A stretch of 6,390 bases of DNA from a virus. Taxonomy: Duplodnaviria > Heunggongvirae > Uroviricota > Caudoviricetes. The position numbers and the translations under genes were made by a program. The stretch lies in the IMG/VR virus record IMGVR_UViG_2706794698_000008; one strand, given 5' to 3'. Below are positions 1 through 4,791 of this stretch, in pieces. Numbering within the stretch: the first letter of the stretch is position 1; every line of letters starts with the position of its first letter. The notes beneath the pieces are model-generated. The model was given only the letters and a program-made list of their open reading frames with translations. It searched no databases and was not told the DNA's origin.

Positions 1-1
1 A

Positions 2-814
2 GATAAGACACGGCATCAGTACATGGCTGAATTTGGTGAACAGGTGCTGGTATTTTCCAAAGCCGATATTGCTAGTCGTTTTGACGAAGCCGATAATTTT
101 AGTGACCGCCGCTCAATTTTTTACGCCCGTAATGCCTGTTTCGACCAGGCAAAACTGGTCGGGTGTAAATACTTCATTCAGCTCGATGATGATTATCACG
201 AGTTCCAGTTTCGGGTGGATCGCAACTATGACCAGGCCTATTTCCCGATAAGGAAACTGGATGAGATCCTTTCTGAAATGCTTGCGTACTACGAATCAAT
301 ACCTGCTCTTTCCATCGCTATGTCGCAGGGCGGGGATTTTCTTGGTGACAATGGCGGCCATGCTTCGTGGGTGAAACGCAAGGCAATGAACAGCTTTATC
401 TGTTCGGTTGATCGACCGTTCTCATTCATGGGGCGCATTAACGAGGATGTGAATACGTACACGAATCTCGGTCGCTGTGGTGAATTGTTTATGACGATCG
501 GTGCTGTCCAGTTAGGGCAGAAACAGACGCAGAAAAACAGCGGCGGAATGACCGAGCTGTATCTGGATTCCGGAACCTACGTTAAAAGTTTTTACTCCGT
601 CATGTATGCGCCGTCGTGCGTAAAAATCTCACTTATGGGTGCCAGTCATAAACGCATTCACCATCAGGTCACCTGGAACAACGCTGCAGTAAAAATCCTT
701 CACGAAAAATACAGGAAGAAGACACCCTGCATATCAATGGGGGTGACAAATGATTCCGTATTCGAAAGTCGAGTCTCTGGCAGCGTGCCGGATGACTGCA
801 CAACAAATCGCTGA
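2..814 (+). CDS. Putative GT-A fold (family 2-like) glycosyltransferase, 5'-partial; function tentative
   Basis: Open frame runs from window edge (no in-frame stop upstream of first ATG at 23, and no Shine-Dalgarno before 23), stop TGA 812-814. Translation contains ARNACFDQAKLVGCKYFIQLDDDY, resembling the GT2/GT-A pattern ARN..G...A.G.Y(I/L).(F/L)D.DD (hydrophobic strand followed by DxD). The DxD sits only ~56 aa after the first in-window Met, so the N-terminus probably lies upstream. Motif-level evidence only. Confidence 0.45.
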   Translation, partial: DKTRHQYMAEFGEQVLVFSKADIASRFDEADNFSDRRSIFYARNACFDQAKLVGCKYFIQLDDDYHEFQFRVDRNYDQAYFPIRKLDEILSEMLAYYESIPALSIAMSQGGDFLGDNGGHASWVKRKAMNSFICSVDRPFSFMGRINEDVNTYTNLGRCGELFMTIGAVQLGQKQTQKNSGGMTELYLDSGTYVKSFYSVMYAPSCVKISLMGASHKRIHHQVTWNNAAVKILHEKYRKKTPCISMGVTNDSVFESRVSGSVPDDCTTNR

Positions 815-1001
815 CGTTCTGGATGTTGATCTGAACCGACTGAAAGAAAATCGGGAAGCAATGACAGATTTTTATGCGGCCATCCGTAAGGGCAGAGCGA
901 AAGGTGAAGCCGAGTTACGAGCGGCATTGTTTAAGCTTGCCAGAAAAGGGGATGCCTTTGCTCTGCGCGAACTACTCAGGGTGGATAAAAATCAGGACTA
1001 A
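750..1001 (+). CDS. Small HTH DNA-binding protein (83 aa), function unknown; possibly packaging-associated
   Basis: ATG 750 preceded by GGGGGTGA (739-746); stop TAA 999-1001, 3 nt before the terS start. Predicted HTH at TAQQIADVLDVDLNRL followed by a basic helical region. Alternative start ATG 792 (69 aa) is possible. Overlaps the 3' end of the upstream ORF by 65 nt in another frame. Confidence 0.5.
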   Translation: MIPYSKVESLAACRMTAQQIADVLDVDLNRLKENREAMTDFYAAIRKGRAKGEAELRAALFKLARKGDAFALRELLRVDKNQD

Positions 1002-1004
1002 CTG

Positions 1005-2099
1005 ATGAGCAGACCGGACTGGGGGGCGTTGCAGCAGGAGTATATTGCTGAATACACCCGCTCCGGTATATCTCCGGTGGCATGGTGTGAAGCAAGGGGA
1101 CTGAATTACGCAACAGCCCGTCGTTACATCAAAAAAACTCCGAAAAATGCGCAGACAGAAATGTGCAAAACTGCGCAAAAAAGTGCGCAGAAAAAATCTG
1201 CGCAGACTGCACAAAAGCGGAACGAAAAATCTCAGGAAAAAAAGCCAGTATTCGATGCGGGCCTGAATGAGGGCGACGCGGAGGAATTTTCGTTCTGTCC
1301 CGATGAATTCGGCATTTCTGACCAGCAGGCTAAGTTTGCGATGCTTGTTGCTCAGGGTAAAAAGCCGACAGAGGCGTACCGACTAGCCGGTTATGAGGGG
1401 CAAGGTGCGACAGCTAACAGCAACGCCAGTCGTATGCTTAGAAATGCCAGGGTTTTTCGCGCTATCAGCTACTTCCGCAATCAGTACCAGAAACGCTATA
1501 CCGCAGACCTGGATTTACTAGTGAGTCAGTTGATGGCTATTGTCCTGGCCGACCCCAATCAGCTTGCACAATTTCGCCGTGTTAACTGCCGTTATTGCTG
1601 GGGCGAGAATCATCTCTACCAGTGGCGCGATATAGCAGAATTCGACAAGGCAGCGGCGCAGGCTTCCAGAGATGGCAAACCCGAACCGGAATATGGAGGC
1701 CTCGGCTTTGTTGATAACGCCATACCCAATCCGGACTGCCCGAAGTGCTGCGGTGAGGGAACGGGACAGCTTTATATGGCTGATACCACTCTGCTTGATG
1801 GGGATGCGCGGCAATTATATGCAGGGGCAAAATTCGGAAAATTCGGCGTTGAGATCCTGCTGGAGGATAAGGCTGCCGCCCGGCGTGAATTGTTGCGTTT
1901 GTTTTCTGCTGGCGGGGCTTTATGTGCAGATAAGCGGCTACGGGAACTGGAAATTGAACGGCGCAGAATGGAAAACCAGAAGCTGCGCAAAGAGATCGAA
2001 ACGGTGGAAGATAATGAACATCCCCAGCCTGTGGCGATCAATATTAATGTGGTTGATGCCAGAGTAAGGAGTGATGAAGATGATCTCTCCGACGCTTAA
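1005..2099 (+). CDS. terS: Terminase small subunit (Terminase_2 / P27-like DNA-binding domain), atypically long at 364 aa
   Basis: ATG 1005 with AGGA (994-997) 7 nt upstream. The segment ISDQQAKFAMLVAQGKKPTEAYRLAGYEGQGATANSNASRMLRNARV matches the terminase small-subunit HTH signature (..Q..F...Y......A...AGYS...A......LL....V). Also an N-terminal transposase-like HTH, a K/Q-rich linker, a CxxC...CxxCC motif, a coiled-coil region and an acidic tail. Sits immediately upstream of terL. Confidence 0.85.
   Translation: MSRPDWGALQQEYIAEYTRSGISPVAWCEARGLNYATARRYIKKTPKNAQTEMCKTAQKSAQKKSAQTAQKRNEKSQEKKPVFDAGLNEGDAEEFSFCPDEFGISDQQAKFAMLVAQGKKPTEAYRLAGYEGQGATANSNASRMLRNARVFRAISYFRNQYQKRYTADLDLLVSQLMAIVLADPNQLAQFRRVNCRYCWGENHLYQWRDIAEFDKAAAQASRDGKPEPEYGGLGFVDNAIPNPDCPKCCGEGTGQLYMADTTLLDGDARQLYAGAKFGKFGVEILLEDKAAARRELLRLFSAGGALCADKRLRELEIERRRMENQKLRKEIETVEDNEHPQPVAININVVDARVRSDEDDLSDA
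1148..1213. repeat. Cluster of palindromic hexamer TGCGCA (4 exact + 2 one-mismatch copies in 66 bp) inside terS
   Basis: Exact TGCGCA at 1148-1153, 1172-1177, 1184-1189, 1199-1204; variants TGTGCA 1162-1167 and TGCACA 1208-1213. Spacing 9-15 bp. Coincides with the Ala-Gln repeats of the terS linker (NAQT..TAQKSAQKKSAQTAQK). Confidence 0.65.
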
Positions 2100-3367
2100 T
2101 GTGCCTCAGGCGCGATTTCTNNNNNNNNNNNNNNNNNNNNNNNNNNNNNNNNNNNNNNNNNNNNNNNNNNNNNNNNNNNNNNNNNNNNNNNNNNNNNNNN
2201 NNNNNNNNNNNNNNNNNNNNNNNNNNNNNNNNNNNNNNNNNNNNNNNNNNNNNNNNNNNNNNNNNNNNNNNNNNNNNNNNNNNNNNNNNNNNNNNNNNNN
2301 NNNNNNNNNNNNNNNNNNNNNNNNNNNNGTATCGGGGAACCACTATCTGCAGATCGATGGAGAAGCCACAAACGATCGTCGGTTTCAAAATTGGTAATGC
2401 GTTGGTGGATGAACTGGACATTTTGCCGAAGGAAAAAGCCAGAACGGCGTGGCGCAAGATAATTGCACGTATGCGTTATAAGATTGATGGACTTCGCAAC
2501 GGTATTGACGTTACAACCACGCCGGAAGGATTCAAATTTGTCTACGAGCAGTTTGTTAAAGCCGTGCGTGAAAAAACAGAGCTGGCCTCACTGTATGGTC
2601 TGGTGCAGGCATCTACTTTCGATAATGAAAAGAACCTGCCAGCAGATTACATTCCTTCGCTTCTTGAATCATACCCTCCAGAGCTGATTAAAGCCTATCT
2701 TCGAGGACAGTTTACTAACCTGACAAGTGGTACTGTTTACCATCAGTTTGACCGGAAACTGAATAATTGCGAAGAAGTGGAGCAGCCAGGGGAGCCGATT
2801 TATATTGGGATGGATTTTAACGTTGGAAAGATGGCGGGAATCGTCCATGTGCTGCGTTTGGGGCTTCCATGTGCGGTAACTGAAATCATCAATGCCTACG
2901 ATACGCCGGATATGATCCGCATCATTAAAGAACGCTTCTGGCTGTATGATGGGAATGATTACNNNNNNNNNNNNNNNNNNNNNNNNNNNNNNNNNNNNNN
3001 NNNNNNNNNNNNNNNNNNNNNNNNNNNNNNNNNNNNNNNNNNNNNNNNNNNNNNNNNNNNNNNNNNNNNNNNNNNNNNNNNNNNNNNNNNNNNNNNNNNN
3101 NNNNNNNNNNNNNNNNNNNNNNNNNNNNNNNNNNNNNNNNNNNNNNNNNNNNNNNNNNNNNNNNNNNNNNNNNNNNNNNNNNNNNNNNNNNNNNNNNNNN
3201 NNNNNNNNNNNNNNNNNNNNNNNNNNNNNNNNCAGGTCTGGGATGAGAAGGGGGAGCCTGATAAAAAATCTGGCAATGATCACCCGAATGATGCCGGAGG
3301 TTATTTCATCGTTAAGCAATTCCCTATTGTCAAACCGACCGGAAGAGTCACATCACTTCGGATTTAA
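2099..3367 (+). CDS. terL: Terminase large subunit (ATPase + nuclease), interrupted by two N-masked blocks; start uncertain
   Basis: Frame-2 ORF with ATG 2099 overlapping the terS stop (TAATG). Visible motifs: Walker B-like NALVDELD, terminase ATPase C-motif VTTTPEG, nuclease-domain start IYIGMDFNVGKMAG and C-terminal NDHPNDAGGYF acidic motif. Walker A is presumably inside the 2121-2328 N block. Position between terS and portal fits. Confidence 0.85.
   Translation: MCLRRDFXXXXXXXXXXXXXXXXXXXXXXXXXXXXXXXXXXXXXXXXXXXXXXXXXXXXXXXXXXXXXXXXXXXXXXYRGTTICRSMEKPQTIVGFKIGNALVDELDILPKEKARTAWRKIIARMRYKIDGLRNGIDVTTTPEGFKFVYEQFVKAVREKTELASLYGLVQASTFDNEKNLPADYIPSLLESYPPELIKAYLRGQFTNLTSGTVYHQFDRKLNNCEEVEQPGEPIYIGMDFNVGKMAGIVHVLRLGLPCAVTEIINAYDTPDMIRIIKERFWLYDGNDYXXXXXXXXXXXXXXXXXXXXXXXXXXXXXXXXXXXXXXXXXXXXXXXXXXXXXXXXXXXXXXXXXXXXXXXXXXXXXXXXXXXXXXXXXXQVWDEKGEPDKKSGNDHPNDAGGYFIVKQFPIVKPTGRVTSLRI
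2121..2328. other. N-masked block (208 nt) inside terL 5' region
   Basis: Run of n characters; content unknowable from this window. By position it should contain the terL Walker A motif. Confidence 0.99.
2963..3232. other. N-masked block (270 nt) inside terL nuclease-domain region
   Basis: Run of n characters; the terL frame is the same on both sides. Confidence 0.99.
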
Positions 3368-3369
3368 TT

Positions 3370-4791
3370 ATGGCTGATATATCAACACCCAACCTCGACT
3401 ATAACGATATGCTGGAGGCGTGGGATATTAACGACGCACTGATGGGCGGTACGCTTGAAATGCGCAGGCAGGGGGAAAATTATCTCCCAAAATGGCCTAA
3501 CGAAGATGAAGACGCTTATAAAAAACGCCTGTCTGTGGCTACGCTACTTCCTGTGTATGAAGAAAGCATCAAGCAAAATATTGGGCGCATATTTGCAGAG
3601 CCGACAGTATTGAGTGAGGAAACGCCGGCAAAAATCAGGGAATATGCAGANNNNNNNNNNNNNNNNNNNNNNNNNNNNNNNNNNNNNNNNNNNNNNNNNN
3701 NNNNNNNNNNNNNNNNNNNNNNNNNNNNNNNNNNNNNNNNNNNNNNNNNNNNNNNNNNNNNNNNNNNNNNNNNNNNNNNNNNNNNNNNNNNNNNNNNNNN
3801 NNNNNNNNNNNNNNNNNNNNNNNNNNNNNNNNNNNNNNNNNNNNNNNNNNNNNNNNNNNNNNNNNNNNNNNNNNNNNNNNNNNNNNNNNNNNNNNNNNNN
3901 NNNNNNNGTATAAAAGAGGTCATCATTATTGATGGTGATGATTTCGGGCAGAAGAAGGTGGAGCAGATCCGCCATATTATGCCCCGTCGAGTTGAAATTT
4001 ATCGACGTAGCGAAGGCACTAATGGCGAATCTGTCTGGACGCTTCATGAGTCATGGAATACCAGCCGTGATGATATTCCTCTGGTAACACTGTACACGAA
4101 GAAAACAGGATTTATGCGTGGTACACCGCCATTGCTTAATCTTGGCTTGCTGAATATCAAGCACTGGCAAAGCCAGAGCGAGCAGGACAATATTCTTCAT
4201 GTTGCCCGCGTTCCATTGCTGGTGGCCTACGGGCTGGACAGGAATGAAGAACTGACGGTTGGTGCATCCACCGCTACGATTTTTGAGGACAGAACAAAAA
4301 ATGGCCTCGAATATGTTGAACATAGTGGCGCAGCGATAGAATCTGGCGAAACATCACTTGAGAAGCTGGAAAATCAGATGCGTCATGCCGGCGCTAAACT
4401 TCTGCGTGCTGAAAATACATCCACCAAATCTGTTGATCAGACTAATGAAGAGCGAATGCAGGAAAACTCGCCGCTTTATACAATGGCGAACTCCCTCGAA
4501 GATGCCCTCGATAATATTCTCCAGATAATGGCGGAATGGATCGGAGAGAGTTGCGGTGGCAATGTGGATGTGCGCACTGAACTGGATGTATCTGCCCAGG
4601 TGTTTGACTCATCCTCCGCGCTGGCTGTTCAGTCATTGCGTCAGGGCGGTGATATACGTCAGATTGATGCGGTTCGGGTGTTGCAGGCGTTGAAATTTAT
4701 CGATCAGGATTCCCGTCCAGAGGAAGTGATCGATGAATTAAAAAATCAGAGTGTAATGCTGATGGAAATCAATGATGCAAACCGTGAATGA
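3370..4791 (+). CDS. Portal protein (473 aa), central part N-masked
   Basis: ATG 3370 lies 2 nt after the terL stop (TAA 3365-3367); stop TGA 4789-4791. Size and position (terL - this gene - Mu F-like gene) are those of a portal. Assignment is by synteny and overall character, not a specific catalytic motif. Confidence 0.75.
   Translation: MADISTPNLDYNDMLEAWDINDALMGGTLEMRRQGENYLPKWPNEDEDAYKKRLSVATLLPVYEESIKQNIGRIFAEPTVLSEETPAKIREYAXXXXXXXXXXXXXXXXXXXXXXXXXXXXXXXXXXXXXXXXXXXXXXXXXXXXXXXXXXXXXXXXXXXXXXXXXXXXXXXXXXXXXXXIKEVIIIDGDDFGQKKVEQIRHIMPRRVEIYRRSEGTNGESVWTLHESWNTSRDDIPLVTLYTKKTGFMRGTPPLLNLGLLNIKHWQSQSEQDNILHVARVPLLVAYGLDRNEELTVGASTATIFEDRTKNGLEYVEHSGAAIESGETSLEKLENQMRHAGAKLLRAENTSTKSVDQTNEERMQENSPLYTMANSLEDALDNILQIMAEWIGESCGGNVDVRTELDVSAQVFDSSSALAVQSLRQGGDIRQIDAVRVLQALKFIDQDSRPEEVIDELKNQSVMLMEINDANRE
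3651..3907. other. N-masked block (257 nt) inside portal gene
   Basis: Run of n characters; the portal frame is continuous across it if the masking is one-for-one. Confidence 0.99.

Follow-up and report, generated by a model that had tools for sequence, protein, structure and literature searches.

The pac site of phage P1 spans 161 bp, contains seven hexamers, depends on Dam methylation and has been defined experimentally; synonymous recoding of these hexamers lowered the P1 titre about 9-fold (PMC10028697). In the P1 genome annotation, TGATCA/G hexamers are located at nucleotides 194-233 and 324-380 of pacA, where they use at least two reading frames and lie on either side of the annotated cleavage positions and of an IHF site. 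For P22 and Sf6, wobble-position recoding is an established pac test (PMC11260489; PMC9611059). The HTHs of SF6 and SPP1 are described as having little local sequence specificity, with recognition ascribed to bent DNA (PMC4737164). Recognition of pac DNA by TerS is still called unclear and controversial, and in vitro binding to P22, Sf6, SF6 and SPP1 pac DNA is described as weak or non-specific (PMC9611059; PMC4737164).

The window analysed here is a stretch of 6,390 nucleotides (IMG/VR record IMGVR_UViG_2706794698_000008) and represents the packaging and head region of an E. coli prophage, which is lambdoid, of Rac type and full-length. When 1.4 kb spanning the hexamer array was compared with 5426 complete E. 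coli genomes, 906 of them matched. In strain EC2, one flank of the locus carries recE-racC-kilR-ydaSTUV, lysis genes, trkG and ynaK, and the other carries the portal, MuF-like, P22-type coat and lambda-like tail genes. Just upstream of terS, Rac contains a ParB-like gene (ParB/Srx-like YnaK) and a TAGT glycosyltransferase gene.

Within terS, a cluster of TGCGCA hexamers lies directly behind the codons of an additional N-terminal HTH domain. These hexamers are probably a binding-site array for the N-terminal HTH of the same TerS, and together the hexamers would form the pac site of the Rac-type phage. A candidate pac site in terS had been proposed in an earlier note on this DNA, and the proposal is supported by the comparative data and by the headful-type relatives of TerL. 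The features of the window were as follows.

1-814: 3' part of the TAGT glycosyltransferase gene
792-1001: ORF of 69 aa
1005-2099, plus strand: terS, 364 aa, assigned to Pfam Terminase_2 and phrog_51
1005..1139, plus strand: terS codons 1-45, the additional PacA-like N-terminal tri-helical HTH (AF2, hhalign)
1107-1127: helix 3 of this HTH, residues 35-41 (YATARRY), with the Arg39 codon at 1119-1121
1140..1283, plus strand: DNA coding for the Lys-rich linker, residues 46-93, which hosts the array; A-runs separate the hexamers
1284..2099, plus strand: terS body of SPP1/SF6 G1P type, which has an HTH of its own (about residues 99-146) followed by a long helix, a CxxC...CxxC insert and the C-terminal end
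2080..3367, plus strand: terL, Terminase_6N/6C, whose product is the presumed nuclease/motor that would cut close to the array; N runs mask part of it, and Pfam was run on the complete copy in locus L001
After terL in gene order: a DUF4055 portal gene, then the gene of a MuF-like protein

The terS product matched phrog_51 with an E value of 7e-75. Its PF03592 (Terminase_2) match covered residues 122-321 only, with 34.5 bits against a gathering cut-off of 26.1, and the first 45 residues were outside this match. A sequence search of PDB with terS gave no useful match, and the relatives listed in the full-length homologue search all had at least 81% identity.

The array consists of six slots. Their positions in the window are given below with the encoded residues and the conservation among 22 indel-free Rac haplotypes.

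1148-1153: hexamer 1, TGCGCA, read as aaT GCG CAg (N-A-Q); exact in 22/22 haplotypes
1162-1167: slot 2, TGTGCA with one mismatch, read here as M-C-K; exact TGCGCA in 18/22 haplotypes
1172-1177: hexamer 3, TGCGCA (T-A-Q); exact in 22/22 haplotypes
1184-1189: hexamer 4, TGCGCA (S-A-Q); exact in 17/22 haplotypes, TGCGCG in the others
1199-1204: hexamer 5, TGCGCA (S-A-Q); exact in 21/22 haplotypes
1208-1213: slot 6, TGCACA with one mismatch; exact TGCGCA in 12/22 haplotypes

These positions confirm the four exact and two near copies that the earlier note had counted within 66 bp of terS. The first near copy had been put at 1163, one base off, and actually starts at 1162. The terS translation further confirmed a low-complexity AQK linker, as the array DNA encodes the ...NAQTEMCKTAQKSAQKKSAQTAQK... 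linker of terS. Individual slots are dispensable: the window allele, with 4/6 slots exact, is at the poor end of the haplotype range, and six slots are exact in other alleles.

The whole window contained 7 TGCGCA copies compared to 3.1 expected from shuffles. When 7 sites were placed randomly on the 5655 non-N bases, at least four starts fell within 60 nt with P ~1e-4. In the 41-kb prophage context, 15 TGCGCA copies were found, and three within 80 bp occurred only at this array. Based on the excess in the window, the clustering statistics and the sole cluster in 41 kb, the array is real and not a product of chance.

The N-terminal domain next to the array was modelled using AF2. Residues 1-48 gave a pLDDT of 82.7 and formed a tri-helical HTH with helices at residues 6-20, 24-31 and 35-41. 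In the full terS, residues 46-93 had a pLDDT below 50 and were predicted to be disordered, and the full-length model from a shallow alignment was poor outside the N-domain (pLDDT 49.7). A Foldseek search with the N-domain gave no significant match (best E 0.47), and the top matches were almost all HTH DNA-binding domains. The N-domain was found in about 190 clusters at 50% identity, almost always in N-terminal position, and it precedes differing terS bodies (240-364 aa) and differing TerL families. A homologue search with the 50-aa domain returned truncated or frameshifted fragments only.

In all cases, a repeat array started only a few bases from the domain end; the arrays start about -11 to +56 nt from this end on the same strand. 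A protein-blind search for TGCGCA triplets in IMG/VR viral contigs was performed, and 59 of the 81 arrays adjoined the N-domain. Arg39 was present in 56 of these 59 and Lys39 in 0. The remaining arrays were microsatellites or arrays in GC-rich genomes. In the corresponding TGCGAA-triplet search, chance matches and microsatellites dominated; of 80 arrays, 7 adjoined the domain (5 Lys39, 0 Arg39, 2 unparsed).

Residue 39 of the domain covaried with the hexamer. Among 107 non-redundant loci, Arg39 domains (..TARRYIK..) were accompanied by TGCGCA in 48/48, and Lys39 domains (..TAKRYIK..) were accompanied by TGCGAA/TTCGCA, often as TGCGAATTCGCA, in 57 with one additional tie; no locus was discordant. 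At least 10 switches between the Arg39/TGCGCA and Lys39/TGCGAA states were counted on a tree of codons 1-35. Residue 36 did not track the hexamer. The encoded peptides differed completely by class, with SAQK on one side and SANS and NCET in the Lys39 class. Other helix-3 variants were associated with other repeats, namely four copies of (C/T)GATCAT in 933W and TGATCA in P1. TGCGCA is a palindrome and the Lys39 class uses both the TGCGAA and TTCGCA orientations, which fits double-stranded DNA rather than RNA as the target.

As a working hypothesis, one residue may specify one base. Three observations qualify this reading. Three Lys39 loci (L108, L109 and L118) have conserved distal TGCGCA copies beyond the TGCGAA array, so that either the code is loose or these copies have another reader. 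The hexamer of P1 is TGATCA although its residue 39 is Arg; other residues would thus also set specificity. Furthermore, residue 39 is only about 20 bp away from the array, and physical linkage of two old haplotypes, and not functional coupling, could therefore explain part of the covariation.

The N-domain is homologous to the N-terminus of P1 PacA. In hhalign, the N-domain matched PacA residues 1-57 with a probability of 92.4% and an E value of 5e-7 over 39 columns. PacA residues 3-41 aligned end to end with the N-domain profile, and pairwise BLASTP gave an E value of 0.001. This homology spans about 40 residues; in BLASTP, the terS body showed no similarity to PacA and TerL showed none to PacB. 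The analogy to P1 drawn in the earlier note is therefore closer than thought, since the N-domain is homologous to the start of PacA and pacA carries its hexamers at the corresponding position.

An array bound by the N-domain could also serve another purpose: bound TerS might act as a roadblock that autoregulates expression of terS or of the late operon, or it might be tethered in this way to its own gene. The adjacency and covariation described above show a pairing of reader and site and not what the binding achieves, and gene-regulatory side roles for TerS binding are proposed for SPP1/SF6 (PMC4737164). However, in P1 the homologous module has been established by experiment as a pac site, and no promoter-like site was found within 700-1500 of the window. 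The known function of TerS, to recognize pac, also counts against a non-packaging role. We consider such a role improbable. Within a packaging role, the second HTH in the terS body could read pac in place of the N-domain.

The array might instead be occupied by another protein, such as a host factor, the product of the 69-aa ORF, the ParB/Srx-like YnaK, or a GCGC restriction-modification or methylation enzyme. TGCGCA contains GCGC, the ParB-like and TAGT glycosyltransferase genes are located just upstream in Rac, and a few domain-less arrays occur in GC-rich viral contigs. However, the arrays persist in Klebsiella, Yersinia, Providencia, Pasteurella, Aeromonas and Stx-type phages, where the upstream genes are lysis genes or unrelated ORFs, and only the N-domain stays constant beside them. 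The TGCGAA sister arrays lack GCGC and the context showed no sign of a GCGC methylase, so the earlier suggestion that GCGC methylation could modulate recognition found no support. The chance that the array is the target of another protein appears slim.

A further explanation is that the protein drives the repeat: replication slippage would have lengthened a low-complexity (S/T)AQK linker, and the hexamers would be identical through recent duplication. TRF detected periods of 12 and 36 bp over 1143-1216, the linker is predicted to be disordered, and the array copy number shifts by whole units, with one more in locus L079 and fewer in L080 and L081. These observations are in line with slippage. 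The reading frames, the codon usage and the divergent relatives point in the other direction, and slippage as the driver of the array is very unlikely.

The reading frame of the hexamer was analyzed across terS loci gathered from IMG/VR, GTDB genomes and GenBank phages. In most Rac alleles, slot 2 is read as aTG CGC Aaa (M-R-K) or gTG CGC Aaa (V-R-K), a frame that differs from the xxT GCG CAx (x-A-Q) of the remaining slots. Serratia, Buttiauxella and Klebsiella relatives carry the hexamer in two or three frames, including TGC GCA (C-A). Across 45 distinct arrays, the frame counts were 180/47/9, and the peptides read from TGCGCA in relatives were A-Q, M/V/L-R and C-A, representing all three frames. 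Together with the SANS and NCET of the sister class, these are unrelated peptides. The codons preceding the window hexamers were AAT, ACT, AGT, TCT and ACT; positions 1-2 vary and the third position is always T, which also argues against slippage.

Synonymous resampling was then compared to the observed copy numbers. For linker codons 41-95, a mean of 0.40 hexamers was obtained against 4 observed (P ~5e-5). In seven terS genes, 0.2-0.7 copies were expected and 4-6 were observed, with P at most 6e-4. Overall, TGCGCA was 6-20 times commoner than the peptide demands.

The array also persists through divergence. It was kept in Superficieibacter, Serratia and Buttiauxella terS at 52-55% protein identity, and in Klebsiella, E. 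coli PHB10, Aeromonas and GER2 terS at 34-43% identity or less. The relatives, which span several genera, retained 3-9 exact TGCGCA copies in otherwise unalignable linkers. At the conserved residues of the N-domain, only 39-62% of the codons were identical, and synonymous sites were near saturation, yet 4-9 exact hexamers remained. In Rac-SA53, in which the domain is deleted, 3/5 of the remaining slots were mutated.

The frame independence, the excess over the need of the peptide and the persistence through divergence together indicate that the TGCGCA array is selected at the DNA level. The AQK peptide would be largely a by-product of the hexamer in its commonest frame and of A-rich spacers. 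The earlier note had left the repeat as protein-driven, DNA-driven or both, and had asked whether the hexamers are conserved where the peptide differs. By frames, resampling and divergent relatives they clearly are, which is the opposite of an AQK peptide kept with freely varying hexamers; the DNA-driven part stands and the protein-driven part is largely refuted. A peptide-only explanation was ruled out by the frame analysis and the resampling.

An RNA or single-strand structure, either terS mRNA hairpins that tune translation or stability or antisense terminators, is likewise very unlikely: the sense RNA of 1130-1230 has a folding energy of -29.8 kcal/mol (z = -5.1 relative to shuffles) and the minus strand contains two terminator-like hairpins with T runs at 1184-1215, but palindromic repeats pair anyway and explain the z-score, the array region had no match in Rfam, sequence is conserved and not compensatory pairing, spacing and number vary freely, and the 8 TGCGAA copies of Pasteurella phage Pmp11, all in direct orientation, cannot pair.

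The reading of the array as a pac site was further compared to the packaging type of related phages. The Rac TerL shared 40-51% identity with its counterparts in Kagunavirus, Jerseyvirus and Dhillonvirus. Jerseyviruses are placed by PhageTerm in the class of P1-like headful packaging with pac initiation (PMC10783031), and Dhillonviruses are classed as headful (PMC9022532). In nine other phages, comprising seven with the N-domain plus P1 and ST512phi13.5 (other HTH type), TerL belonged to Terminase_6, Terminase_3 or remained unclassified, and never to the lambda-/HK97-type cos family. These TerL relatives are an indirect fit to a pac mechanism in the Rac-type phage, which may package by the headful route. 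The vB_EcoS-xxxR records are in-silico prophages.

The literature was searched in a library that is incomplete. In it, no prior description was found of a Rac pac, of TGCGCA together with terminase, of a Stx-phage pac or of PacA homologues. No virion termini, packaging or binding results were found for phages with TGCGCA or TGCGAA arrays, nor was a published pac site found for the Stx, Klebsiella, Yersinia, Providencia, Pasteurella and Aeromonas relatives.

In the mechanism that we infer, from physical binding and the Arg39-base contact through ring stoichiometry and cut position to headful packaging, TerS would assemble into a ring via its Terminase_2 body. Each subunit would carry its PacA-like HTH on a disordered Lys-rich tether of about 48 residues. 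Several tethered HTHs would each occupy one TGCGCA with helix 3 in the major groove, where Arg39 probably reads the G opposite C5. Specificity would arise from multivalent occupancy and avidity over 4-6 sites in either orientation. A site spacing of 7-16 bp would be tolerated because the tether is long and disordered, and the A-runs between sites may add bendability. TerL (Terminase_6) would then be positioned for a first cut nearby, followed by headful packaging. The array may have settled in the linker-coding DNA because nearly every peptide would be acceptable there, and because this placement would let the address be inherited in one block with its reader.

More broadly, and only tentatively, the PacA-like HTH and the linker-encoded array might constitute a portable 'reader-plus-address' cassette that sets packaging specificity by a near-digital code in many enterobacterial temperate phages. 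On this possible reading, which falls somewhat short of an even chance, the cassette would span Rac-type, Stx/933W-type, P1, Klebsiella, Yersinia, Providencia, Pasteurella and Aeromonas prophages, and the code would pair Arg39 with TGCGCA, Lys39 with TGCGAA, and other helix-3 variants with GATCA-type repeats. If so, pac sites would be readable from sequence, and an exchange of one residue together with the hexamers could redirect the specificity of packaging or transduction.

If the pac assignment is true, pac would be located for a prophage in the 906/5426 complete E. coli genomes and, by extension, for Stx phages. Such a location would help to predict transduction, both lateral and generalized, and to construct packaging-specific phagemids. 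The array family is a simple system in which the sites can be counted and recognition appears to be sequence-specific, with a small HTH, a 6-bp site, natural variants and a validated P1 relative. It is also a clean case of a cis-acting DNA code within the coding region of a disordered linker.

Compared to the known systems, the Rac-type array resembles P22 and Sf6 in that their pac lies within the terS coding sequence (gene 3 and gene 1, respectively) of a headful phage. However, P22 pac is a single asymmetric 22-bp sequence with no repeat array, and its TerS family and fold are unrelated to the Rac type. SPP1/SF6 G1P, with its pacL-pacC-pacR site, has PF03592 in common with the terS body and shows multiple TerS contacts at the terS start and an HTH ring. 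Unlike these, Rac-type terS has an additional appended HTH, and its DNA has exact, countable hexamers; these two features appear to supply the specificity in Rac-type terS.

Stx (933W), Klebsiella, Yersinia, Providencia, Pasteurella and Aeromonas prophages are like Rac in that the N-domain is followed by 4-9 short repeats within the DNA that codes for the linker, and they differ from it in the repeats, the terS bodies and the TerL families. The 933W terS (L0112) contains a clearly related domain (..NYNTARTRIK), behind which the unit (C/T)GATCAT is repeated four times with a period of exactly 12 bp. Unlike the Rac array, arrays of the 933W type contain GATC, and 933W forms a bridge between Rac and P1.

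P1 shares with Rac the repeated hexanucleotides within the small-terminase-equivalent gene, just 3' of the codons of an N-terminal HTH (..LN..TARRY[IL]..), and in both the hexamers occur in several reading frames. The P1 hexamers form two clusters, HEX4 and HEX3 (4 + 3), about 90 bp apart that flank the cut sites and the IHF site, whereas the Rac array is a single cluster. The next TGCGCA after the array is at 1984, with no second P1-like cluster in the window and no IHF consensus between 1000 and 2100, i.e., across terS. In some of the Klebsiella and PHB10 relatives, a further small cluster follows about 160-200 bp downstream. In P1, Dam methylation of the GATC cores controls cleavage, whereas the Rac array has no GATC. 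No GATC was present between 831 and 1853, so there is no basis for Dam control around the Rac array. The most fitting reading of the Rac array is that it varies the pac architecture of P1, with only the reader domain and the array common to both. It is most likely a P1-style pac array in which a single TGCGCA cluster is combined with a PacA-like HTH on an SPP1-type terS body.

The pairing of the helix-3 residue with the array class (Arg39 with TGCGCA, Lys39 with TGCGAA) was compared among the collected loci. A strict one-residue code does not hold for three Lys39-type loci from IMG/VR (L108, L109, and L118), which carried a TGCGAA array in the proximal part and 3–5 conserved TGCGCA copies in the distal part. 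These distal copies occupied the same positions as those of the Arg39 relatives sharing their terS body, and the three loci look like recombinants. In phage Rac-SA53 (L104, 1351–2379), a deletion fused terS to an upstream gene and the N-domain was lost. Five hexamer slots remain in this phage, and three of them were mutated.

Many database "proteins" of 77–88 aa were terS N-domains that lost the reading frame in the A6–A9 runs between the hexamers (window 1140–1240). These runs look prone to frameshifts, either genuine or introduced by sequencing error. On the antisense strand (window 1184–1215, minus), hexamer pairs followed by T runs formed two hairpins resembling intrinsic terminators.

Two features were located upstream of terS.

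Window 1–814 (L001 18402–20115): TET-associated glycosyltransferase gene (Pfam TAGT), directly upstream of the packaging genes.
Window 792–1001 (a longer ORF starts at 750): small ORF immediately 5' of terS, with a match to phrog_309.

The product of the first gene matched Pfam TAGT (E 1e-20) and phrog_842, and its RefSeq name is "GREB1-related". This gene is preceded by ynaK (ParB/Srx-like), which also matched the N-terminal part of a phrog of phage DNA methyltransferases. The two genes may constitute a DNA-modification pair; no TET/JBP gene was visible across the 41-kb prophage context. The small ORF had no Pfam match but aligned with the central part of phrog_309 ("terminase small subunit", E 8e-23); it could represent either a remnant or an accessory subunit that binds DNA. 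Three masked N runs (window 2121–2327, 2963–3232, and 3651–3907) interrupted terL and the portal gene, and complete copies of both were taken from L001.

In the representative search, P0184, P0234, P0264, and P0266 carried a distantly related HTH unit, present 4–7 times in tandem, with the pattern ..W..L..EQ..SG.S...WC.E.GI...TF.. These four proteins probably belong to transposase-type HTH families.

Another N-terminal HTH type was present in the terS of L008/L009 (Erwinia, Izhakiella), L188 (Klebsiella ST512-KPC3phi13.5), and L192. The repeat arrays in their linkers were GGGGCAAAAAAA/GCCCCAAAA, 6–7 copies of GTACGCA, and TGCGCA. Because arrays also lie behind this different HTH type, the layout of an HTH plus a cognate linker array may be more general. 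A further array was carried by an Stx phage.

L185 1501–2307: terS of Stx-phage 933W, in which four (C/T)GATCAT units come after a related N-domain.

The units recur with a period of exactly 12 bp and encode the peptide IDHE IDHK TDHE IDHD. A published pac site for 933W was not found in the literature. As Dam-site repeats, the (C/T)GATCAT units recall P1 pac.
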